Part shown: in pieces, positions 3,587-23,400 of the stretch
Layout of the letters: each line of letters begins with the position of its first letter
Position numbering within the stretch: the stretch's first letter is position 1
DNA from: an uncultured bacterium
Lineage (GTDB): Bacteria > Patescibacteriota > Minisyncoccia > Phycocordibacterales > PALSA-1337
NCBI GenBank assembly: GCA_963701025.1
Contig: OY969557.1
Coordinates: forward strand, 640,090-704,089
Length of the DNA: 64,000 bases
Direction: 5' to 3'
The notes under the pieces: model-generated
Seen by the model: the letters and a program-made list of their open reading frames with translations, nothing else
Databases searched by the model: none
Told to the model about the DNA's origin: nothing
Position numbers and translations under genes: made by a program

Positions 3587-4402
3587 ATGAGCAATGAAAT
3601 AAATATCCTCTATGAAGACGCCGACATCGTCGCTATCGACAAGCCGTCGGGGCTCATGGTGCATCCGGATGGCAGGTCAAAAGGGCCATTCCTGACGGAT
3701 TGGATCGCGCGAAGATTTCCCGAGGCGGCTACCGTCGGCGAGTCGTCGCGTGCGCCTGACGGCACGGAGATAGTCCGTCCCGGCATCGTCCATCGCCTCG
3801 ACAGGGAAACTTCGGGCGTCCTCCTCGTCGCAAAAACTTCAGCAGGCCATACCTGCCTGAAACAGCAGTTCAAAGACCGCACCATAAAGAAAAAATACGT
3901 TGCTTTCGTCTGGGGTGATCTCGAAGAAGAGTTCGGCACCATAGACCGGCCCATCGGCCGGAGTACGAATGACTTCCGCAAATGGTCCGCCCAGCGCGGC
4001 GCCCGCGGCGACCTGCGCGACGCCGAGACCTATTGGACTAAACTCGGTTACGCTACCATCGGAGAAGCCCGCGACCAGCAGTCCTTCACCTTCATGGAAG
4101 CCGAGCCCAAGACCGGCCGCACCCACCAGATCCGCGTGCATTTCGCCGCGATCCAGCATCCCGTCGTGGGCGACACCCTCTATGGGCCCAATCGCCCGAA
4201 AGCTCTCGGCTTTGAGCGCACCGCCCTCCACGCGCGTTCCATCGAGTTTGACACTGTGGCAGGGAAGCGGATCCGTGTCGAAGCGCCCTTGCCGGAGGAT
4301 TTTGTGAAGGCGTGTGCGATCACTGGAGTTAAAATGGGGCGTGACCTCTCGCCAGTGTTCACTGATACAAAGAAGGAGGATGATTACCTGGGAAAATTGT
4401 AG
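3587..4402 (+). CDS. RluA-family 23S rRNA/tRNA pseudouridine synthase (no S4 domain)
   Basis: VAIDKPSGLMVHP and the catalytic HRLDRETSGVLLVAK motif, plus the C-terminal HQIRVHFA...P..GD.LYG region typical of the RluA/RluD family. Confidence 0.85.
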   Translation: MSNEINILYEDADIVAIDKPSGLMVHPDGRSKGPFLTDWIARRFPEAATVGESSRAPDGTEIVRPGIVHRLDRETSGVLLVAKTSAGHTCLKQQFKDRTIKKKYVAFVWGDLEEEFGTIDRPIGRSTNDFRKWSAQRGARGDLRDAETYWTKLGYATIGEARDQQSFTFMEAEPKTGRTHQIRVHFAAIQHPVVGDTLYGPNRPKALGFERTALHARSIEFDTVAGKRIRVEAPLPEDFVKACAITGVKMGRDLSPVFTDTKKEDDYLGKL

Positions 4403-4410
4403 TTTTTGAT

Positions 4411-4995
4411 TTGATTCAAGAGTATAATCCCTTCCGTATGCTTATGGAAGGAAAAGTAAGACCAGTAGAGATTCCCGACGCGCATTTTCAGAAGGTCAAG
4501 GATTCTGTTGAGAAGCTCTACAAAGAAACTGTATCTGTCGAGTGTCCATATCTCAAAGATACGGTTAATTTCAACGCGCGTGGGCTGGATCATATCAAGT
4601 TCAAAGCTTGGAATAAGCCTCGTTTTAAGTTCGACCAATATATGAGGCTAAAACTATTTCATCTGGTGCCGGAGATACTCCGTCGATCTCATACGGTACA
4701 AGGAGTTTGGGAGCGGAAGGAGTGGGTACGCCAAAAGAAGCATGGCAAATGGGAAAAGATCCCTAAAGATGTCGCGTATTACGAATTCATAGCCGTCATC
4801 AGCCATGCCCGCATCAAGATAGTGATCAAAGAAATCGAAGGCGGACAAAGATTCTTCTGGAGCATCATTCCGTTCTGGAAGATGAATGAGATTACCAGAG
4901 AAAGGAAACTGTACGACGAAGAATTGGAGCACGATGGCAATATCGTCAGTGATTTGGATGTCCTGGATATAAAGCAAAAATCACCAGTTGCCTGA
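4411..4995 (+). CDS. hypothetical protein in low-GC islet
   Basis: 194 aa ORF with a clear GC drop relative to its flanks and no recognisable motif. A strong palindromic structure follows the stop (4996-5060). Confidence 0.45.
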   Translation: MIQEYNPFRMLMEGKVRPVEIPDAHFQKVKDSVEKLYKETVSVECPYLKDTVNFNARGLDHIKFKAWNKPRFKFDQYMRLKLFHLVPEILRRSHTVQGVWERKEWVRQKKHGKWEKIPKDVAYYEFIAVISHARIKIVIKEIEGGQRFFWSIIPFWKMNEITRERKLYDEELEHDGNIVSDLDVLDIKQKSPVA

Positions 4996-5259
4996 TGACT
5001 TTTGTGAGCACTTGGCTGCGGCTTGATTGGCCGCGGGAGAGCCGAAGCCCTCACAAGTGCCACGGGGAAGTGTAGCAGGTTGAGAAAGGATTTCAATACT
5101 TGACATTTTATATTATAAATGCTATAAACAAAGCATAAGATTTAGCATAAAGCTTCATCTGGCCATTAGTGGATATTCTCTATCCACACCGTAGAGCGTC
5201 GAATGTTTCGGCATCGCGGTCCATACAGGTAATGGGGAATCTCTTGAAAGGAGATAAAC

Positions 5260-5718
5260 ATGAGAACAAGAAACCGAGACGAACTGCACCTTCTCAACTT
5301 GGCCAATAATTCTATGGGGAAAATGGGCCTGACCTACGAACGGATGGTCGAGCTCAGGCACCCATCCGACTTGTATCGTTATCTCGATGCACAATCGTCT
5401 GGCATCAATGAAATAATTGACGAGATGAATTATGGCACCCTTGCTCGAATCATTGTTTGTGCTATTAGCCGGTGTGAACAGACGGAATACAGGGGCTGTC
5501 CAATATCGTCTGTTTGTAGCCGTGACATATATTCAGAAACCAATCAGGGTTGGTATATCCTTAAGGAATATGCAAAACGTGTTTTGGTCGCTACCATGGC
5601 AGACATCCTTGTTACGGAAAGTATTCTAAGGCTTGGGCCGGAGAAATCCCCCTGGGGAGGTGGTGGAGCGCCTCGACAAAAGATGATCGAATTCGTAAGG
5701 AGAAATAGAATCAAGTAG
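5260..5718 (+). CDS. hypothetical protein in low-GC islet
   Basis: 152 aa ORF with an RBS-like GGAGATAAAC ahead of the ATG. No recognisable family. Ends in a Gly-rich tail. Confidence 0.4.
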   Translation: MRTRNRDELHLLNLANNSMGKMGLTYERMVELRHPSDLYRYLDAQSSGINEIIDEMNYGTLARIIVCAISRCEQTEYRGCPISSVCSRDIYSETNQGWYILKEYAKRVLVATMADILVTESILRLGPEKSPWGGGGAPRQKMIEFVRRNRIK

Positions 5719-8570: not shown

Positions 8571-9545
8571 TTATTTCCAATGCGTCTTTATGTATTCCTG
8601 CGCCTCGCTCATGGAGAAAGGCTGGGTCGAATTGCCGACGCGGACGAAGAATTCCTCTTTATTATCGGGGCCTTGAAGATACGCCGGTTTATGGCTCTCA
8701 CGGACATTCACCATGCATATGTCTCGCCCTTCTATGGATTCGAACGCGATGCTGACGTATTTGGCGAATGAGAGCCCGATGAGAGTCTTTATGAGCATGT
8801 TCACGTGATTTTCAAAGCCGTCGCGGTTCTTCTTTGGCAGGGCGTTATAATCTTTTTCCAGCCCGGCGATCGTGCTATTGTCCCCGACTCCTATCAATAG
8901 AGTTCCGCCGTCGGCATTCAGAAAACCGACGATGGTCTTCAGGACCATGCGTTCCATTTCCTTGCTGACCTCGCCCTTACGGATGTCATAACGCAAAGTC
9001 TCCTTGAATTCCAGGAATAGGCCTTCGCCCCGCTCGATCAGGGCTTTTGCGTCATGAGTGACCAATCTTCCTGAAGCCGCTTGCACCGACTGCTTGACGA
9101 TGTGCAGGTATTCCTCGAAATTACCGATATTCTTGAGCTTGGTAGTCCGGCCGTTCGCGTGCTCGAGTATGATGGTGCCGTGATACATCATGCGTGACAG
9201 TGGCGATTGATAGAGCTCGACAGAGGTCACGTCGGAAAGGCTTACCGCCTTGCGCCTCCGGAAGAAAAGACCGGATTTTCGAATGATCTCTTTTTCATAT
9301 ATTTCGTAATGAGAGAAGTACCAGTCGAGGAAGAGTAGGAGGATATAGACCAGTTGGAAGAGCGAAAAAGATAGTACCAGGAACACGTGGAAAGTGATAT
9401 ACATGTGTATCGGCCAGGAATTATAAAGAGCCTCGTAGTTTTCGGCGAATTTCGCGAGATAGATGAAGGCTGCCGCCAGAAATTCCATCACCAGGACGTT
9501 TCGGATGAAGACCAGCGGTCCCTCTTTTACGACGATGCGGCGCAT
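8571..9545 (-). CDS. membrane-anchored bPH_2 (DUF304/YdbT-like) domain protein fused to an AlbA_2 / Schlafen-like putative DNA-binding domain
   Basis: N-terminus has 3 TM helices then KSGLFFRRRKAVSLSDVTSVELYQSPLSRMMYHGTIILE (bPH_2 signature). C-terminus has EGLFLEFKETL...KTIVGFLNADGGTLLIGVGDNSTIAGL, which is the AlbA_2 / Schlafen-type divergent AAA core. Confidence 0.55.
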   Translation of the reverse strand: MRRIVVKEGPLVFIRNVLVMEFLAAAFIYLAKFAENYEALYNSWPIHMYITFHVFLVLSFSLFQLVYILLLFLDWYFSHYEIYEKEIIRKSGLFFRRRKAVSLSDVTSVELYQSPLSRMMYHGTIILEHANGRTTKLKNIGNFEEYLHIVKQSVQAASGRLVTHDAKALIERGEGLFLEFKETLRYDIRKGEVSKEMERMVLKTIVGFLNADGGTLLIGVGDNSTIAGLEKDYNALPKKNRDGFENHVNMLIKTLIGLSFAKYVSIAFESIEGRDICMVNVRESHKPAYLQGPDNKEEFFVRVGNSTQPFSMSEAQEYIKTHWK

Positions 9546-10758: not shown

Positions 10759-10830
10759 GCTCCCATAGTTTAATGGATAGAACACGAGCCTCCGAAGTTC
10801 GCGGTCCAGGTTCGATTCCTGGTGGGAGCA
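10759..10830 (+). tRNA. tRNA-Arg (anticodon CCG), copy 2 (one substitution in D-arm/position 26)
   Basis: Same cloverleaf as copy 1 with GAACACGAGCC in place of GAACGCGAGCC. Preceded by a duplicated spacer. Confidence 0.8.
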
Positions 10831-11100
10831 CAAATTCGCGAAAAACTCGGAATCGCCCGAAAAAGGCGAAAGCACATCACAATGCGGAGGGCGGGGCGGC
10901 ATTCCTCCCCAGACCCCTCCTGCCGCCCCGCCCGCTTCATTGTTGGCGTTTTTGGGGATTTCGGACACGAAGGCGAAGGGTGCACGAGGCGAAAAAACGA
11001 GGGCGCGGTCGCGGAGGAGTGGGTTCGAACCGACCTTTTGGAAAAATTCCCGAATTTTCATCTGATCATCGCTCCTCGCCAAAATACCGGCTTGTTTACA
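10831..11100. repeat. GC-rich structured repeat, module P1, copy A (abuts 3' end of tRNA-Arg)
   Basis: About 95% identical to the reverse complement of 13893-14100. Contains a long imperfect hairpin GCGGAGGGCGGGGCGGCA-loop-TGCCGCCCCGCCCGC. The 10773..11117 and 10822..11109 ORFs inside it are treated as spurious. Confidence 0.6.
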
Positions 11101-11171
11101 GTCGTTTAGGAAGTTGACTACCGGTTCGAACCGACTCGACGAGACGCGTCCGAAAGCTACCAATTTGTCTT

Positions 11172-12387
11172 TCAAAATCTGCTTTTCGGTAGACGAGCTT
11201 GTTTTTGGTAGTCTTGATATTCTTCCAGCGTCAAAGCGTTCTCAAGATAAGCGGTCATAAGTTTGTCGAGCTTGGCATCAACAGCCGTGACTTCAGCATT
11301 CACTTTTTGAATTTGGTCTTTTGAGGAATTGTTGTCTTCAGCTTTCTCTTTCTCAACCTCGGCAATGAGCCAATCGGCCACAGCATCAGACAACGATACT
11401 TTCTCCAGTTCCGTTTTGATCATATCGGTCATAGCCTCCTCGCGGACATACTTTTGCGAGCATGGTCCCTTCCTTTTGGTACATCGCAAGTAGTTATGGC
11501 CTTTCTGCGTCTCGGCGGTGATGGAACAGCCGCATTCGCCGCACTTGAATAGTCCGCGATATACATACGGTTTCAAACCACCACCGTGCTGAGGTTTGCT
11601 TTTTCTGCGTCATCATCTCCTGGCAAGTGTCAAAAAGCTTCTTCGTGATGATAGGCTCATGCTTACCTTCGTAAAACTCGCCGCCCACGTACATGAGTCC
11701 ATGGTACAGGGTATTTTTGAGAAGAGATTGATAGTTGGAAATGGAAAGCTCTTTTCCCGTATGGCTTCTTAAGCCAAGAGTGCCCATGACCTTCTTCAAT
11801 CCAGAGAGGGTGTAGTTGCCGGAGCCGTATGCTTCAAACATTTTCCTAATAAGCGGAGCTCTATCAGGATCGACAATGATCGATTTGCTTTTCTTGTCCC
11901 ACAGATATCCCATCGGAGCTTTATGCGGCCAGATGCCATTCTTCAATTTCTGACGATAACTGCGTTTGATATTCTCCGAGAGGTTGTCGACAAAATATTT
12001 ACTCTGGCCGAAGGCAATGGAGAGCATGAATTTGCCCTGCGGAGTTGCATCAAACCAGAATGTCGGGAACTTGAGATCCGTAATCATGCCGGTATCCACG
12101 AGATATATCACCTTACCTCCATCAACCGAGTTGCGAGCTAAACGATCTGGATGCCATGCGAGGATACCAGAAGCCTCACCGGCCTCTATACGCTCCAACA
12201 TCTCCGCGAATACAGGCCTGCCCGGTACTTTCGCCGTTTGTTTCTCGACGAAAATATCAACGACCTCCAGTTGCTCTTTTTTGGCGAGCTCGCGCAGCTC
12301 GGAGAGCTGGTCGGCAAGCGATCTCACTTGCCGATCCTCGGTGTCGGTAGACTTTCTGGTATAAATAAAATATTTTTTCTCACTCAT
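11172..12387 (-). pseudogene. large serine recombinase (resolvase catalytic domain, recombinase domain, zinc ribbon, coiled-coil), interrupted by a frameshift
   Basis: ORF 11494..12387 has the N-terminal YTRKSTD..Q..SL..Q resolvase motif with catalytic Ser plus a recombinase domain. ORF 11172..11576 has the zinc ribbon (KPYVYRGLFKCGECGCS...YLRC) and a coiled-coil. The frames switch at an A5 run (cagaaaaagc, about 11590-11600). Confidence 0.75.
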
Positions 12388-12481
12388 GGATACATTTTAC
12401 CATTTTTCAGTGAAGTCAAGAAAAGTTCATAAGAAGGGGATAGAAATACATTCATACGAATTTTCGTTGACTACTTGACAC

Positions 12482-13000
12482 ATGACCATATTTGATATAG
12501 TTTCTAAATCAGAAAGGATTAGAATTATGAAAAATCGAATTGTAGTGACTGTTCTTCACGACATGGCTGGCAGTTTGTATGAGCAGGGTTGGCGGAATGG
12601 CCTATTTAGGCCGATCGCTCATATGTCGCTTGGGTATGGCTCGGATGGATGCAAAGACACGGAGGTGGATTTCGCCGAATCAATCACATTCCTTGTGGAA
12701 GCTGTCAACGATGAAAAATCGCGAGTATTGGTTCTTGGAACCTGTCCGCGGACCATTACATCATCATGGATCAAAGCTGCTGAATTGGTTATCAAGGGGA
12801 GCGACGTCAAAACAGTCGTTATACCCATTGCCAAGCTTCTTAACAGGGACATGAGCAACCCGATGATTGACGGCTCGATCATCTTTGTTGATAAGTCAGG
12901 CATTTTCAGGATCGAAAAGCCCGGCCATATGTTAGCAAATGATTTTGTCGAGGTATTCTCTCAGAGTGCCAGACTCTTCAATCAACAAGTGTCTGGATAA
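12482..13000 (+). CDS. hypothetical protein (moderately low GC)
   Basis: 172 aa ORF with no recognisable motifs. Followed by an intrinsic terminator. Confidence 0.4.
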   Translation: MTIFDIVSKSERIRIMKNRIVVTVLHDMAGSLYEQGWRNGLFRPIAHMSLGYGSDGCKDTEVDFAESITFLVEAVNDEKSRVLVLGTCPRTITSSWIKAAELVIKGSDVKTVVIPIAKLLNRDMSNPMIDGSIIFVDKSGIFRIEKPGHMLANDFVEVFSQSARLFNQQVSG

Positions 13001-13020
13001 TACACTTTCTCAAATCACAA

Positions 13021-13049
13021 AGGTCCGGTCATCATACCCGGCCTTTTTT
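13021..13049 (+). terminator. Rho-independent terminator after 12482..13000
   Basis: GGTCCGG tcatcatac CCGGCC followed by TTTTTT. Confidence 0.5.
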
Positions 13050-13051
13050 AA

Positions 13052-13635
13052 TTCCAAGGAAACCCCGCATGAGGAAGACGCATGGCTTCCGAAATGCGGG
13101 GATGAATTGGTCCATCTGCGTATCGCCTCCGGAGGAGGCGACATGGTACGCTAAAGGTTCCATGAGGACCCGAAGCTTAAACCACTCGGTATATCAGACT
13201 CAATATCACATTGTCTGGGGCACGAAGTATCGCAGGAAGTACCTGAAGGACTATGTAAACACCGAATTCAGGCTGGCCTGCTGGGAAGTAGTGAAGAAAT
13301 ATCCCACGCTCTTCATACATACGGTAAACACGGACAACGATCATATCCACCTCCAGATCGAGATACCACCGAATATGTCTGTGGCTGCCGTCGTCAAGGC
13401 ACTTAAGATCGAATCGAGCGTGAGGCTCAAGAAACGATTCAAATTCATCAGGGAGATGTACATCGACGGCAGCATCTGGAGCGTGGGGTATTTTGTCTCC
13501 ACCATCGGCCTAAACGAAACTCAAATCAAGAATTACATACAATACCAAGGCAAGAAGGACCTCGGCCACACCCTCCGCATACGCTTCGGGTCCTCGTGAC
13601 CCTAAAAGGAAACCCCGCATGAAATGCGGGGAGGA
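13052..13635 (+). mobile_element. IS200/IS605-family insertion sequence (tnpA only), with subterminal hairpins
   Basis: Left end AAGGAAACCCCGCATG...CATGCGGGG is a compound hairpin (13063-13101). Right end AAGGAAACCCCGCATGAAATGCGGGG is a perfect 8-bp hairpin (13613-13631). Both ends share the AAGGAAACCCCGCATG sequence and bracket a Y1 transposase gene. Confidence 0.65.
13162..13599 (+). CDS. tnpA: IS200/IS605-family transposase TnpA (HUH Y1 transposase)
   Basis: YHIVWGTKYRRKYL, the HUH motif DHIHLQIEIPP, and the SIWSVGYFVSTIG region with catalytic Tyr. About 145 aa, typical TnpA size. Confidence 0.8.
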   Translation: MRTRSLNHSVYQTQYHIVWGTKYRRKYLKDYVNTEFRLACWEVVKKYPTLFIHTVNTDNDHIHLQIEIPPNMSVAAVVKALKIESSVRLKKRFKFIREMYIDGSIWSVGYFVSTIGLNETQIKNYIQYQGKKDLGHTLRIRFGSS

Positions 13636-13649
13636 GGTCATTATACTTA

Positions 13650-14300
13650 AAATTATTTCATAACACACGTACCGCCGAGAAGCGGTCGACTTCCGCTTCT
13701 CCTCACGGACTTTTGTTCGCGCCCGGCGGATGTCGGTGCGGCGGAGCACCCCACGGTCGCCCAAAAGCGACGGTGGAAGGTGCGAGAGCCGTACGGACAG
13801 ACGCTCCGGGCGCGCCACAGGCTCTGTGGAAGCGGAAGTGGGCCGCTTCGAGCCACTGCGATGATTGCGATCTGCGTTTGCGATGAAAGATAAATAAGCC
13901 GGTGAGAATCCGACTCCTCCGCGACCGCGCCCTCGTTTTTTCGCCTCGTGCACCCTTCGCCTTCGTTCCGGAAATCCCCAAAAACGCCAACAAGGATGCG
14001 GGCGGGGCGGCAGGAGGGGTCTGGGGAGGAATGCCGCCCCGCCCTCCGCATTGTGATTTGCTTTCGTCTTTTTCGGGCGATTCCGAGTTTTTCGCGAATT
14101 TGTGCCGATTCCTGAACAAAGTTCGAACCTTTTTCGCCGAAAATCCGACATGAATGGTTGCGCCTTCGCTCTGCTCGGCGCGGTGAAAGGGCGGACGGAG
14201 GACTGGGGGTGTGGGGGAAGGACTCCGTCCGCCCTTCCTCTTCGTTTTCGCGCGCCGCCGTGCCGGTTTTTTCGGGCGGGGGCGCTGAAATCTTATCCAC
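13650..14300. repeat. composite GC-rich structured repeat, copy B (modules H + P1 + P2)
   Basis: H module at 13677-13852 is bounded by hairpins GAGAAGCGG-TCGACTT-CCGCTTCTC and GAAGCGG-AAGTGGG-CCGCTTC. P1 at 13893-14100 matches the reverse complement of 10831-11060. P2 at 14100-14290 contains the perfect 12-bp hairpin GGGCGGACGGAG...CTCCGTCCGCCC and matches the reverse complement of 23171-23395. Three overlapping minus-strand ORFs in all three frames are taken as GC artefacts. Confidence 0.6.
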
Positions 14301-14383
14301 ATATAAGGAAATTGACATTTAGATAAGGATACGCTACCCTTACTAATATGGTATGTATTTACATACAGAATTAATTTATCACT

Positions 14384-14602
14384 ATGAATCAAGATCAAAA
14401 AAGAGAACGATTTAAACGCTTAGGAGTACAGCGTACGAACGCTGTTTTACAGAAGCTAAAAGTGCTTGGCAATTGTTCGAATAGAAGCGCTTATAACTAT
14501 ACCGAGGAAGAAATCAATAAAATCTTTTTAGAGGTTGAACGCCGGGTTCGTGAGACCAAAGCAAAATTCCACTTTCCTAAGAATAAAGAATTTAAACTAT
14601 GA
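14384..14602 (+). CDS. small basic protein, translationally coupled to downstream GHKL ATPase
   Basis: 72 aa and Lys/Arg-rich. Its stop overlaps the next ATG (ATGA). Begins a sharply low-GC islet immediately after the GC-rich repeat. Confidence 0.45.
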   Translation: MNQDQKRERFKRLGVQRTNAVLQKLKVLGNCSNRSAYNYTEEEINKIFLEVERRVRETKAKFHFPKNKEFKL

Positions 14603-16965
14603 AAAATGAGGATATTAAGAATCTTGCTCTTGCATTAGTTAAGGCAGATACAGAGAAAGAGGTTGTTAAAGTCTTAAAAGATTTTTATCTTTGGGATGAC
14701 CAAAAATCTTGGAAGGAAGTTGATCAAAGCGCAGGAAACTGGTCAACAATCGGGAACCAACAAAGTGCGCCCGACACTGCACTTGTCGAGAAGATAATTA
14801 ATTCGGTCGATGCAGTATTAACACGGGAATGTCTAAGGGAAGGCATAGACCCCAAAAGTGACGCGGCACCTAAAAGTATCGTAGAAGCTCAAAAAAGATA
14901 TTTTGGAATCCATAACGGAAAACTTTCTAGTATTGATGCCAATATGAGAGCGAGTATCGCGGAGAATATTTTTCTTGTCGCTACTGGCGATAAGACAAAT
15001 CCCTCCTACTCAATAATTGACTTAGGAGAAGGTCAATCACCGGAGTCTTTTTCTGATACCTTTCTGTCTCTGAATAGAGGAAATAAAAGTAATGTTCAAT
15101 TTGTACAAGGAAAGTTCGGAATGGGCGGTACGGGAGTTTTCAGATTTGGCAGTCCGGAACATAACCTTCAATTAATAATTTCTAAAAAAGATCCCTCTAT
15201 TAAGTTTGGTAAGAAAAGCGAACAATGGGGGATGACCGTCATTAGACGTATTCCTCCGACTGGACAAATGCGAAGTTCAATTTTTACATATCTTGCTCCA
15301 AATAACAGCGTTCTCTCTTTTACTGCACAATCCCTACCTCTTTTGCCGGGAAAACACCCCAATGCTTACTCGAATCAGCTTTCGTGGGGGTCATTTATAA
15401 AGATCTATGAGTATGATCTCGTCGGCCTTAAAAGTAACGTACGATTTGATTTGTTTTATCGTCTATCATTGCTTTTGCCAAATATAGCTTTACCAATAAC
15501 TCTTTGTGAGCGAAGAGATTATAACGACAAAGATGGTAAAACGAGGGATATGAAGATTACCATGTCTGGATTAAGTGTTCGTCTTGACGAAGACAAAAGA
15601 GATAATCTTGAAGAGGATTTTCCCAGCACAGGTGAATTAAGTGTAAAAGGTCAGAGAATGGATTATTCAATATATGCTTTTAAAAAAGATCGCAGGAGGA
15701 CTTATTCAGGAAATGAAGGCGTTGTGTTTACTGTAAATGGTCAGGCTCATGGCTTTTTACCAAAAACATTTTTTGAACGCAAGGCAGTTGGCATGTCGTA
15801 TCTTTCCGATAGCATCCTTATTCTCATTGACTGTTCGAAGATTGACAGAAGAAGACAGGAAGATTTATTTATGAACAGCCGTGATCGTCTTAGCGGCGGA
15901 CCACTTCAAAGTGAAATTGAACAGCAATTAGAGGAAATCATTAAAAATCACCAAGGCCTCCGGGCATTAAGAGAGAAGAGACGCAGAGAAGATATTGAGA
16001 ATAAATTACAAGATTCAAGACCGTTGGCGGAAGTTCTCGAAAACATAATAAAGAAATCTCCATCTCTATCAAGTCTATTTACGCAAGGAGTAAGGATAAA
16101 AAATCCTTTCAATCTTGCCGGTGCAACGGAAAATGGGAAGTTTAAGAGTAAAAAATTCCCGACTTATTTTGAGCTGACGAAGAAATATCCAGCTGAAAAA
16201 CCAAAATCATGCCCTATTAACAACAGGAAGTTTCGTATTCAATTTGAGACTGATGCGGAGAATGATTATTTCAATCGAGATAAAGAGCCGGGTGGTATAA
16301 CTGTTAAGATAAACGGGGGCACTATTGAAGACTATTCGCTTAATCTATGGAATGGATTGGCAACTCTGAATATTGAGATTCCCAATACGGTAAAAATTGG
16401 GGATATTCTCTGTTTTTCAACAGAAGTAATAGATCATACACGAGTAGAGCCATTTTCTAACGAATTTTGTATAAAAATTGAAGAATCTCAAAAAGACGGG
16501 GAAGGAAAAAATGGTGATAGGAAAAAATCTTCAGGAAAGAAATCTGGCGAGGGAAGGAAAAAGCCCACATATCTTGATATTCCGAATGCTTGGGAAGTAC
16601 GTAGAAATGAATGGGACAAGCACAGCTTTGATGACAAGAGTGCTTTGAAGGTTGTAGATGCGGGGGAAGAGTCCGGGTACGATTTTTATATCAACATGGA
16701 TAATGTCTACCTCCAGATGGAAATCAAGGAGAATATAAAGGTTGACCCCAAGCTTCTGGAAGCAAGATTTAAGTATGGAATGGTTTTGCTAGGTATCTCG
16801 CTACTTGATTTTGAAGAGAAGAATAAGAAAACAGAAAGTCAATCCTCAAGAGAAAATGATAACATGTCAATCTTTGATAAAATTTTACTTTTTTCGAGAG
16901 CAATTTCCCCGACACTGCTCCCGATGATTGCCTCACTTGGAGATTTACAGCTAGGAACAGAGTAG
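14599..16965 (+). CDS. large GHKL/Bergerat-fold ATPase (Hsp90/MORC/sacsin-like HATPase) with long uncharacterised C-terminal region
   Basis: N-box VEKIINSVDAVL (E..N..DA), G1 box IIDLGEGQS (D.G.G), G2 box GKFGMGGTGVF. 788 aa with a Lys-rich low-complexity segment near residue 640. Low-GC islet. Confidence 0.6.
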   Translation: MKNEDIKNLALALVKADTEKEVVKVLKDFYLWDDQKSWKEVDQSAGNWSTIGNQQSAPDTALVEKIINSVDAVLTRECLREGIDPKSDAAPKSIVEAQKRYFGIHNGKLSSIDANMRASIAENIFLVATGDKTNPSYSIIDLGEGQSPESFSDTFLSLNRGNKSNVQFVQGKFGMGGTGVFRFGSPEHNLQLIISKKDPSIKFGKKSEQWGMTVIRRIPPTGQMRSSIFTYLAPNNSVLSFTAQSLPLLPGKHPNAYSNQLSWGSFIKIYEYDLVGLKSNVRFDLFYRLSLLLPNIALPITLCERRDYNDKDGKTRDMKITMSGLSVRLDEDKRDNLEEDFPSTGELSVKGQRMDYSIYAFKKDRRRTYSGNEGVVFTVNGQAHGFLPKTFFERKAVGMSYLSDSILILIDCSKIDRRRQEDLFMNSRDRLSGGPLQSEIEQQLEEIIKNHQGLRALREKRRREDIENKLQDSRPLAEVLENIIKKSPSLSSLFTQGVRIKNPFNLAGATENGKFKSKKFPTYFELTKKYPAEKPKSCPINNRKFRIQFETDAENDYFNRDKEPGGITVKINGGTIEDYSLNLWNGLATLNIEIPNTVKIGDILCFSTEVIDHTRVEPFSNEFCIKIEESQKDGEGKNGDRKKSSGKKSGEGRKKPTYLDIPNAWEVRRNEWDKHSFDDKSALKVVDAGEESGYDFYINMDNVYLQMEIKENIKVDPKLLEARFKYGMVLLGISLLDFEEKNKKTESQSSRENDNMSIFDKILLFSRAISPTLLPMIASLGDLQLGTE

Positions 16966-17029
16966 CCAGAAATGTTGATAAAAGAAAACAGAACAGGTTT
17001 GATATGATAAAATTACACTCTGTCGAATT

Positions 17030-17791
17030 ATGCAAAAACTTTTCATCAAAAACCGTAAGGACCAGAAAATCGCCGTCGTCATAGATCAGCCCGCCAAAGC
17101 GCGTGGTATGGCTTTCGTGACCCACGGTCTGGGCGGATTCAAGGAACAGGCCCACATCCGAACCATGGCGCAAGCTTTTCTCGATAACGGCTATACCGTG
17201 GTGACATTCGATACCACGAATACATTCGGCGAAAGCGACGGAAGCTATGACGATGCCACCGTAACCAATTATTCTGAAGATCTCGAGGATGTCGTAGCTT
17301 GGTCAAAAAGCCAACCGTGGTACATGGAACCATTCTGTCTGGCCGGACACAGCCTGGGTGCCATTTCTGTCGCCCTGTATGCCCAGAAATATCCGAAGCT
17401 CGTCAAAGGCCTGGCTCCAATCTCCACGGTAGTATCAGGCAAATTAAGCATGGACAGGGAGAAAGATTTCGATGGTTGGAAGAAAAAGGGGTATCAAGAA
17501 AAGATCAGTAACTCAAAGCCTGGTCTTGTCGGCAAGCTCAAGTGGTCGCATATGGAAGATCGGCTCAAATATGATCTCTTGCCAAAAGCAAATCTCCTGA
17601 CCATGCCGGTCTTGATGATAGTCGGCTCAGAAGATGTGCCTACGCCAGTGCGTCATCAGCAAATACTCTACGACGCATTGCCTGGCAGGAAAGAGATGTA
17701 TGTCATAGAAGGATCGCCGCATACATTCAGAGATGAGAAGCATCTGAAGCAGGTGTACCAACATTTTGATAAGTGGATTAAGACTTTATAA
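17030..17791 (+). CDS. alpha/beta-fold hydrolase (dienelactone hydrolase / S9-like)
   Basis: HGLGG oxyanion region, nucleophile elbow GHSLG, late acidic residue (GSEDVP) and His (SPHTF) in canonical order. Confidence 0.75.
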   Translation: MQKLFIKNRKDQKIAVVIDQPAKARGMAFVTHGLGGFKEQAHIRTMAQAFLDNGYTVVTFDTTNTFGESDGSYDDATVTNYSEDLEDVVAWSKSQPWYMEPFCLAGHSLGAISVALYAQKYPKLVKGLAPISTVVSGKLSMDREKDFDGWKKKGYQEKISNSKPGLVGKLKWSHMEDRLKYDLLPKANLLTMPVLMIVGSEDVPTPVRHQQILYDALPGRKEMYVIEGSPHTFRDEKHLKQVYQHFDKWIKTL

Positions 17792-18791: not shown

Positions 18792-19505
18792 ATGCAAATC
18801 GAATCAAAACAACAAATTCTCGCTCGACGGAAAGAGCTTGAGCAAGAGATCGTGGAGATGCTCGAAGAAACCGAGAGCAATTTCGAGCTTGCCGACGTGC
18901 TCGATGCCATATACGAGGAAGAGGAGAACGACGATATGACGAAGATCATAGCCATGTTCGACAATGGCGACATGAGCCAATTGAGCAATGTCCTTGAACT
19001 GGTTACCGATGCCTGGAATTATTTCCCCCATAAAGCTCTGGGCGGGATATCCCCGTCGGAGAAATCATTGGAATACGCAGAGAAGCATCCGACGAAGACA
19101 AAAAGCAAGAAAGGAGTGGATACCATGCCTCGCGTTTGCGTCGGCAACAGGGAGATGTCATGGGACGAGCATCAAGCCATGCTCAAGGAAATGGCAAGGG
19201 CTCAGGAACCATTCAAGAAGTGGATTTCTGGTGTGCTCGCGGATTACCGGTCGTTCTTGAAGCAGGAGAGATTGTCAGCCAAGATGGTTGATAAGCATTA
19301 CTTCATCGCCGAGACATTTTTCGACAGGGTTCTGTGGCTGGGCTGGGTGAATTTCGGAAGCATCAGAAAGGAATTCACTAGCGATGAGTTTCCAAAGTGG
19401 TGGAAGACGCATGTAGTCGCTTCTGGGATTGATGATTCGAAAGAAGTTAAAAATTCCGTGCGTAAACTGGTTGATTTTATAGAGGCTAAATATGTTGTTA
19501 AGTAG
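18792..19505 (+). CDS. hypothetical protein (acidic N-terminal coiled region)
   Basis: 237 aa ORF with good coding periodicity and no recognisable motif. Confidence 0.45.
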   Translation: MQIESKQQILARRKELEQEIVEMLEETESNFELADVLDAIYEEEENDDMTKIIAMFDNGDMSQLSNVLELVTDAWNYFPHKALGGISPSEKSLEYAEKHPTKTKSKKGVDTMPRVCVGNREMSWDEHQAMLKEMARAQEPFKKWISGVLADYRSFLKQERLSAKMVDKHYFIAETFFDRVLWLGWVNFGSIRKEFTSDEFPKWWKTHVVASGIDDSKEVKNSVRKLVDFIEAKYVVK

Positions 19506-23009: not shown

Positions 23010-23400
23010 GAGAAGCGGTCGACTTCCGCTTCTTCCGTCAATCGTTATTCGCGTCCGGCGGAACGTCGGTGCGGCGGAATGCAATGAAGCCGCACGGACT
23101 GACGCAAGGACGCGCCACAGAACTCTCTGAAGCGGAAGTGGGCCGCTTCGACTATGTGACGATTGTGATTATGCTATGATTTCCATATCGAACCCGCCCC
23201 CGCCCGAAAAAACCGGCACGGCGGCGCGCGAAAACGAAGAGGAAGGGCGGACGGAGTCCTTCCCCCACACCCCCAGTCCTCCGTCCGCCCTTTCACCGCG
23301 CCGAGCAGAGCGAAGGCGCAACCATTCATGTCGGATTTTCGGCGAAAAAGGTTCGAACTTTGTTCAGGAATCGGCACAAGTATTTGTGAGCTATAATCAG
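23010..23400. repeat. composite GC-rich structured repeat, copy C (modules H + inverted P2)
   Basis: H module at 23010-23151 has the same terminal hairpins and conserved core CGCGYCCGGCGGA..GTCGGTGCGGCGGA as copy B. Region 23171-23395 is the reverse complement of P2 (14100-14290) at about 98% identity. It overlaps the 5' part of ORF 23176..23658 as annotated. Confidence 0.6.

Follow-up and report, generated by a model that had tools for sequence, protein, structure and literature searches.

What does a solitary pair of low-GC genes, one encoding a large GHKL ATPase and the other a small basic protein, do in the genome of an uncultured Patescibacteriota bacterium? The pair lies in a stretch of 64,000 nucleotides (nt) of contig OY969557.1 (assembly GCA_963701025.1, positions 640,090 to 704,089 of the forward strand). 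We refer to this whole stretch as the window, and positions are given in its coordinates unless another locus is named. We give about an even chance to the reading that this islet is an autonomous, laterally transferred restriction-like defense module. Its motifs and its modeled fold mark the large protein as a MORC/MutL-type GHKL ATPase that looks active and has an S5 transducer domain. The defense reading gains indirect support from the DNA-modification genes that are linked to other branches of the superfamily to which this protein belongs.

Organization of the islet and of its large protein

The small open reading frame (ORF) runs from 14384 to 14602 and the large one from 14599 to 16965, including the stop codon. 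Both are on the plus strand, and they encode 72 and 788 residues, respectively. The two genes share the ATGA at 14599 to 14602, where the ATG of the large gene (14599 to 14601) overlaps the TGA of the small gene (14600 to 14602). GC content is 0.37 to 0.40 across 14400 to 16999, compared to 0.52 to 0.59 at 13400 to 14399 and 0.45 to 0.50 downstream. An earlier note, made from the letters of the DNA, had described these coordinates, the overlap, and the low-GC islet, and the ORF list, the sequence, and the GC profile confirm all three. Because the large protein belongs to a family of more than 2,950 clusters in a protein collection clustered at 90% and the small protein has 758 homologues of 72 to 74 residues, we consider both genes real. 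The left boundary of the cassette is sharp, at about 14290, and the right boundary is the stop codon of the large gene, where 3′ homology among cassettes ends. The mobile unit therefore spans about 14290 to 16965, without flanking repeats, and we found no convincing terminal repeats or target duplications around it. A search of 11000 to 17500 against Rfam for structured RNA in or around the islet gave zero matches.

The large protein carries all four Bergerat motifs: motif I (E64/N68/D71), motif II (D141/G143/G145), motif III with the ATP lid (G171/G176/G177/G179), and motif IV (G211/T213). These motifs are invariant in 30 aligned homologues and conserved in 73 to 78 of 78 family members. The strings on which the earlier note had based its GHKL assignment, EKIINSVDA, IIDLGEGQ, and GKFGMGGTGVF, are present as E64-KIIN68-SVD71-A, D141-L-G143-E-G145-Q, and G171-KFGM-G176-G177-T-G179, with the motif residues invariant in 77 to 78 of the 78 members. 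The assignment holds on the motifs, on the fold, and on matches to HATPase_c_3 (PF13589) in 13 of 30 homologues (best E value, 1.8e-6). The window protein has no match to this family at an E value of ≤1, and precomputed PF13589 matches are present on some homologues. In the AlphaFold model, which has a predicted local distance difference test (pLDDT) score of 73.7 and, like our structural models generally, is of moderate confidence, Foldseek finds the GyrB 43-kDa fragment and the N-terminal and middle domains of Hsp90 at E values of about 1e-9. Searches of the large protein against Pfam, NCBIfam, PADLOC, and PHROGs models gave nothing meaningful, and single-sequence and profile searches of the PDB were empty.

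The GHKL (Bergerat) ATP-binding domain occupies residues ~57 to 295 (14767 to 15483). An S5-fold transducer-like domain follows at residues ~296 to 432 (15484 to 15894). It contains K333, which is K or R in 73 of the 78 members and is a candidate phosphate sensor, and it ends with an invariant F-M-x-S-R-D-R-L (residues 424 to 431). On the secondary structure and pLDDT of the model, a helical segment (residues 435 to 495; 15901 to 16083) and a disordered linker to residue ~517 then lead to an Ig-like beta-sandwich (residues ~520 to 630; 16156 to 16488) with the conserved loop E-T-D-A-E-N-D-Y-F-N-R-D-K-E-P-G. Residues 632 to 661 (16492 to 16581) form a Lys/Arg-rich linker that is modeled as disordered (pLDDT, <50; 10 of 30 residues K or R) and is the variable region of the alignment. 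The terminal domain, residues 662 to 788 (16582 to 16962), consists of a small alpha/beta unit with YINMD and K710, followed by a long helical hairpin, and we propose it as the dimerization and/or effector end of the protein. The earlier note had been right about the Lys-rich disordered stretch. Its statement that about 550 residues hold no recognizable domain does not stand, since the S5 and Ig-like domains leave only residues ~662 to 788 unmatched. An exhaustive profile search with residues 515 to 788 found 1,219 clusters, all of which are C termini of 770- to 850-residue proteins or fragments. None of these clusters has an alternative N-terminal fusion, and therefore no function can be borrowed for the C-terminal module.

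Distribution and links to DNA modification

A pattern scan in which each of 185,579 species was represented by one genome gave at least 511 loci, or about 0.3%, with homologues 43 to 80% identical to the window protein. The bacterial hosts are Patescibacteria, Saccharibacteria, Bacteroidota, Chloroflexota, Planctomycetota, Verrucomicrobiota, Acidobacteriota, Bacillota, and Proteobacteria, and the archaeal hosts are Methanoregula, Methanophagales, Micrarchaeota, and Nanobdellati. That the family is distributed sporadically across both domains argues for lateral transfer rather than vertical housekeeping inheritance. Horizontal acquisition had already been suggested in the earlier note, and the sharp boundaries of the cassette and neighbors that are different in every genome agree with it. 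In genomes of the candidate phyla radiation (CPR), the pair is inserted between ordinary genes at a site that differs each time (dnaX/uvrD, lytB/pyrF, pif1/infB, and dnaX/xseAB). A dnaX-like gene, encoding DNA polymerase III gamma/tau, is immediately 5′ of the cassette in two CPR genomes (L089/L090, 6396 to 7508; L094, 3104 to 4126), which may reflect a shared insertion site or shared ancestry.

We examined the context of 80 of the at least 511 loci of the window's family, where gene calls are crude ORF picks. Only the immediate partners recur as neighbors in these loci. In a distance tree, members of the window's clade almost always have the small partner and none has an adjacent methyltransferase gene. 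In a clade of 821- to 848-residue proteins, a gene for a Type II-like N6_N4 methyltransferase (motif IV, SPPY) lies in convergent orientation, in most cases no more than about 70 nt and at most 182 nt from the stop codon, and the upstream partners vary. Overall, a methyltransferase gene is found within 3 kb at 16 of the 80 loci. In Methanoregula and some other lineages the partner is an unrelated protein of 340 residues, and still other lineages have a VapBC pair, an HTH_17 protein, 130-residue proteins, or nothing. Within 6 kb of the cassette, a Pfam scan of the window's clade found large serine recombinases, NYN, and AAA_21 as the only recurrent families, at three loci each.

Plasmid-borne distant homologues (22 to 32% identity) led us to a sister family of ~815 to 830 residues. 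It comprises more than 3,020 clusters and is unannotated except for PF13589. The two families align by hhalign over residues 4 to 716 with a probability of 100% and 30% identity, and they have in common the GHKL motifs, F-M-x-S-R-D-R-L, the sandwich loop T-D-x-E-N-x-Y-F-x-R...E-P-G-E, YINMD, and K710. We looked at nine loci of the sister family. In seven of them (L081, L082, L097, and L100 to L103), Ssp-type phosphorothioation genes directly adjoin the sister gene, encoding DUF4007/SspB, a ~1,075-residue ATPase/SspC, a PAPS reductase/SspD, and often a class V aminotransferase (Aminotran_5). These loci usually also hold a DUF262 (GmrSD_N) gene and a Ser/Thr protein kinase gene. In addition, the Halogeometricum borinquense plasmid pHBOR02 (L099, 1789 to 5963) carries a homologue (26% identity, 92% of the query aligned) next to, and divergent from, a gene annotated as a site-specific DNA methyltransferase. 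Self-marking DNA modification is thus linked to three separate branches of the superfamily, through the convergent N4/N6 methyltransferase, the haloarchaeal methyltransferase, and the Ssp clusters. Such links are the hallmark of a restriction-type partner, and we infer that the GHKL protein is one. The adjacency of the sister family to Ssp genes likewise suggests that the superfamily acts in restriction coupled to modification.

We compared the family with systems that have been described. The Ssp systems consist of SspABCD with SspE or SspFGH (PMC8092258). The sister family, which has the same architecture as the window's family, adjoins sspB-, sspC-, and sspD-like genes, whereas the window's family differs in having no Ssp genes in the 80 loci or in the window. 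SspF is described as a Walker A protein and SspH as FtsK-like, neither of them GHKL (PMC8092258), and the idea that the sister-family trio is SspFGH was rejected because these published features do not fit. For about 84% of sspBCD clusters a restriction partner is not known (PMC8092258), which makes the sister family a candidate for part of the missing partners. We found no description of a GHKL partner of Ssp clusters, or of the window's large-protein family, in the literature that we searched.

Prokaryotic GHKL/MORC-type ATPases were tied to restriction-modification and conflict systems by prediction in 2008 by Iyer, Abhiman, and Aravind (PMC2292703). The window's family resembles their paraMORC proteins in its N-terminal GHKL domain with intact motifs, its S5 domain, and its family-specific C-terminal extension. 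Further likenesses are its sporadic, mobile occurrence in bacteria and archaea, its partial linkage to methylases, and the existence of stand-alone members (PMC2292703). The family differs in that the SF-II helicase, Vsr, HNH, and RE-fold partners were not found with the window's family, and in having an Ig-like sandwich with a novel terminal domain and a small coupled partner, which are not in that report (PMC2292703). The basic residue K333 in an S5-fold domain that follows a GHKL domain is a feature shared with MORC proper. However, a regular-expression search for the MORC S5 motif GhXhhpXXRhl (PMC2292703) matched none of the 78 members. We therefore call the large protein paraMORC-like and not MORC proper. 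From eukaryotic MORC and SMCHD1 it differs in having no CW, coiled-coil, or hinge domains, and identity to them is 12 to 13%. The MutL C-terminal dimerization/endonuclease and DNA_mis_repair families had no Pfam or NCBIfam match, so that the likeness to MutL is limited to the N-terminal fold, and the HSP90 middle and C-terminal domains of Hsp90/HtpG were not matched either.

The one experimentally validated example of this kind is VcSduA, or Shedu type I-D, which is paraMORC3, an anti-phage protein whose ATPase residues are needed for defense (PMC12137116). Like the window's protein, it combines a GHKL ATPase, a middle domain resembling a clamp, and a C-terminal module in one large chain. In contrast, its DUF4263 PD-(D/E)xK nuclease is undetectable in the window's family, which has an extra Ig-like domain and the coupled small partner. 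This branch, GHKL with a Shedu nuclease, is the only prokaryotic GHKL/MORC-type branch tested so far. The literature that we searched does not describe the architecture with Ig-like and terminal domains, the coupled small partner with its operator, or the clade structure.

The small partner and its leader

In 27 of the 80 species-level loci, and almost without exception within the window's clade, the small gene (14384 to 14602) lies directly 5′ of the large gene. Gene neighborhoods thus show that the partner is conserved and coupled within this clade, a check that the earlier note had proposed. Its product is basic, as had been noted, with an isoelectric point of 10.1 and 18 Lys and Arg residues against 9 Asp and Glu residues. 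It is predicted to form two helices, and the conserved core of its homologues reads ...RF+RLAxxRTNxVLxxLxVLGNCSNRxxYxY(T/S)EEEhxKIF.... Searches against Pfam, NCBIfam, PADLOC, PHROGs, and the PDB assigned it to no family, and the PDB searches, with single sequences and with profiles, returned only coiled-coil noise (hemagglutinin HA2). Its matches to DUF4145 are weak, at 13 to 16 bits against a cutoff of 23 bits, and cover about 35 residues.

The leader, on the same strand, contains what we predict from its sequence to be a promoter and an operator. An upstream half-site pair, CTTATCCAC-ATATAAGGA (14292 to 14309), marks the left edge of the conserved cassette, where nucleotide identity to locus L094 begins. 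Its TTATCC is the reverse complement of the GGATAA of the main palindrome. The predicted −35 box, TTGACA (14312 to 14317), is aligned in most leaders of the clade, and the arrangement TTATCCAC-N3-5-TAAGG-N3-TTGACA is kept in several of them. The main palindrome, the operator-like TAAGGATA-CGC-TACCCTTA (14324 to 14342), covers the spacer and the predicted −10 box (TACCCT, 14335 to 14340). When at most one mismatch was allowed, this palindrome had six matches in 1.53 Mb of loci, in five independent loci, and all of them are 54 to 61 nt 5′ of the start of a small gene. More generally, inverted repeats with 8-nt arms are present in 23 of 32 leaders of the clade, compared to 40% of shuffles (binomial P = 2.5e-4). 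These repeats are often centered on the −35 or the −10 box, and their sequences differ between leaders.

We then compared how the two genes have been inherited. The small protein of L094 is 96% identical to that of the window, whereas the large protein of L094 is only 59% identical. At the nucleotide level, the window and L094 are 83 to 97% identical through the leader and the small gene (about 14295 to 14594). Identity is about 60% once the large gene begins, starting with its first codon, and to the left of about 14290 the two sequences are unrelated. The large gene of the window is closest to that of L095 (84% amino acid identity), whose small gene and leader differ, so that the mosaic breakpoint is the gene junction. 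Across 16 cassettes, identity between small proteins does not correlate with identity between large proteins (r = 0.06). The pattern of identity to L094 indicates that the leader and the small gene are inherited together, as a unit whose recombination with the large gene takes place at the junction. Since the promoter, the palindrome, and the small gene are inherited as one block and recombine freely with the large gene, we favor a controller role: on this sequence evidence, the small protein is most likely a cis-acting DNA-binding controller of its own operon, with autoregulation proposed.

In Type II restriction-modification operons regulated by controller (C) proteins, a small gene lies just 5′ of the gene for the restriction enzyme and overlaps it, and palindromic operators lie at the small gene's own promoter. 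The islet is similar in its small overlapping upstream gene and the palindrome at its own predicted promoter, and the sister clade is similar in its convergent methyltransferase gene. It differs in that the small protein has no Xre/HTH_3 domain and the window's clade has no adjacent methyltransferase gene. The small partner is no substitute for a methyltransferase, since the two occur together within 3 kb in L047, L066, and L076, and in L060 the small partner is present along with a C1 methyltransferase gene that overlaps the 3′ end of the large gene and was missed by our distance rule.

The same layout is that of a type II toxin-antitoxin system, and we asked whether the islet could be one. 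In such a toxin-antitoxin or abortive-infection module, the large GHKL ATPase would be a growth-arresting toxin, and the small protein would be a labile antitoxin that binds it directly and represses the promoter. A small upstream gene, a 4-nt overlap, a palindrome over the predicted promoter, and a mobile pair that stands alone among housekeeping genes all conform to this layout, and the swapping of partners between lineages recalls the "mix and match" of toxin-antitoxin systems. Moreover, VapBC-type genes occupy the same position in five loci: a PIN-domain (VapC-like) gene is in the coupled upstream position in L013, L030, L033, L046, and L071, and an AbrB/VapB-like gene precedes it in three of these. 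L071 has both a VapC-like gene upstream and a methyltransferase gene downstream. However, the small and large proteins do not codiverge, which fits a cis-acting regulator more easily than a neutralizer that relies on specific protein-protein contact. In addition, the small partner coexists with a methyltransferase gene in some loci, many clades have no such partner, and a highly conserved, multidomain toxin of 788 residues would be unusual. We therefore regard a toxin-antitoxin function as unlikely, if still worth serious attention.

Weighing the defense reading, and the surroundings of the cassette

If the islet is a restriction-like defense module, its action might be as follows. By analogy with GyrB, MutL, Hsp90, and MORC, the large protein would be a constitutive dimer held together by its C-terminal helical domain, and ATP binding would dimerize the N-terminal domains and close the clamp. 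Binding of the substrate, most likely DNA, would be aided by the Lys-rich linker and the Ig-like domain, and the modification-linked relatives suggest that the large protein would be the interference component acting on DNA. The small protein would bind the palindrome over its own promoter and so set the level and timing of operon expression, as C-proteins do.

Several observations weigh against this reading. All of the evidence is computational. Neither protein matched a single family among the PADLOC-DB v2.0.0 models at an E value of ≤1, and searches of the large protein for a nuclease or other effector, by fold and by family, found none. The methyltransferase motif [DNS]PP[YFW] is absent across the 64-kb window, and hidden Markov models built from the sister loci detected none of the genes for SspB, SspC, SspD, DUF262, or the kinase, either in the window or at the 80 loci. 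Neighbors in the window's clade, scanned against Pfam, are mostly housekeeping rather than defense genes. We found no recognizable DNA-binding domain, Xre/HTH_3 included, in the small protein, and the upstream partners in different lineages (families C0, C2, C4, C42/55, C43, and C66) are mutually unrelated, with all hhalign probabilities below 3%. The earlier note had inferred a defense cassette and had asked whether a defense-island context is conserved. In the window's clade the cassette usually sits among housekeeping genes instead. The defense claim survives in part: modification genes linked to other superfamily branches support it indirectly, and with no PADLOC match and no effector domain, defense is an inference. 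No consistent housekeeping-operon neighborhood was found, and the GHKL motifs do align among homologues.

The family is very large, unnamed, and unmodeled. CPR bacteria and DPANN archaea, in which it is common, have poorly known defense repertoires. The methyltransferase and Ssp links of the other branches make the proposed role concrete and testable. Culturable hosts with homologues include Flagellimonas okinawensis (strain 81s02), Proteiniphilum acetatigenes (DSM 18083), and Virgibacillus xinjiangensis (KCTC 13128), and for the sister family Hymenobacter and Dyadobacter.

We also asked whether the large protein could be a cryptic restriction endonuclease of the Shedu type I-D/paraMORC3 kind, which would be compatible with the defense reading. 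The terminal domain would then be a divergent PD-(D/E)xK nuclease, with D695, E708, and K710 in its active site, gated by the GHKL clamp. D695, D701, E708, and K710 are conserved in 71 to 78 of the 78 members and resemble a PD-(D/E)xK motif. The 13-residue spacing from D to E and the h-h-E-x-K pattern resemble what we take to be RecB-type motifs. The methyltransferase linkage of the sister clade implies a DNA-damaging partner, and VcSduA, which is a fusion of a GHKL ATPase and a nuclease, defends against phage (PMC12137116). However, E708 and K710 of this signature are modeled on a helix, no nuclease family or fold was detected, and D695 and E708 are lysines in the sister family, which shares the terminal domain. 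This explanation thus also seems improbable to us, about as much so as a toxin-antitoxin function.

A further version of the defense reading dispenses with a nuclease. The large protein could be a non-nucleolytic, MORC-style, ATP-driven DNA clamp that topologically entraps or compacts, and so silences, incoming or unmarked DNA, tuned by the small controller and widespread in CPR and DPANN genomes. We consider this a speculative proposal with a rather small chance of being correct. If it were true, the superfamily, including the Ssp-linked sister family, would represent modification-aware, non-nucleolytic interference and a functional antecedent of silencing by eukaryotic MORC and SMCHD1.

Mobile elements and repeats lie near the cassette, as the earlier note had stated. 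A large serine recombinase pseudogene, frameshifted into three pieces in three frames, occupies 10972 to 12402 on the minus strand and was identified by the Pfam Resolvase and Recombinase families and by tblastn. The intact recombinases beside the cassette in two other genomes (L009, 3444 to 5012; L053, 7783 to 9693) share 54% identity with it, which suggests that a recombinase-borne island is one vehicle for the cassette. An IS200-type element follows at 13056 to 13640 on the plus strand, with a Y1 transposase gene at 13069 to 13599 (Pfam Y1_Tnp, 3e-30). Its ends carry identical 17-nt repeats, AAGGAAACCCCGCATGA, at 13056 and 13606, which form CCCCGCAT...ATGCGGGG hairpins, and the element looks intact. 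Between it and the cassette, a GC-rich multicopy repeat (13640 to 14295) abuts the left cassette boundary. Copies are found in the stretch from 23010 to 23379, where 23195 to 23379 matches (185 nt, 100% identity, inverted), and at 10828 to 11032 (206 nt, 95% identity), the latter in the recombinase pseudogene, and a 69-nt piece (87% identity) is just 5′ of the cassette in an unrelated contig (L094, 4235 to 4303). The repeat is rich in hairpins and has no Rfam match.

These elements raise the possibility that the cassette is cargo that serves a mobile element, with a maintenance, exclusion, or anti-defense function for a serine-recombinase-borne island. The homologous recombinases beside the cassette in the window, L009, and L053, the adjacent IS200 element and repeats, and six loci on IMG/VR contigs classed as viral are in keeping with this. 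However, most loci have no nearby recombinase, the window's cassette persists despite its degraded recombinase, and there was no match in 50,697 phage genomes. We find such a cargo role hard to credit, and a phage origin of the cassette was rejected on the same viral and phage counts. A housekeeping role in chromosome organization, mismatch repair, or protein folding is very improbable: the fold does resemble those of MutL, MORC, and Hsp90, and its CPR neighbors often function in replication or repair (dnaX, uvrD, and xseAB), but the family is found in so few species, patchily across domains, its neighborhoods are not conserved, the GC content of the islet is atypical and its boundaries are sharp, and there are no MutL_C or HSP90 family matches.

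A few other genes deserve mention. Two ORFs near the cassette, at 12482 to 13000 (plus strand, 172 residues) and 18792 to 19505 (plus strand, 237 residues), had no Pfam or PHROGs matches, and no homologue of the 172-residue ORF was found in any locus that we fetched. In L095, the locus whose large gene is the closest relative of the window's, an AbiEii-family gene (4104 to 5387) lies about 400 nt 5′ of the cassette. In the window itself, 5 kb upstream of the cassette, a gene at 8571 to 9545 on the minus strand encodes a bPH_2 (bacterial PH) domain fused to a Schlafen/AlbA_2 domain and is possibly conflict related.

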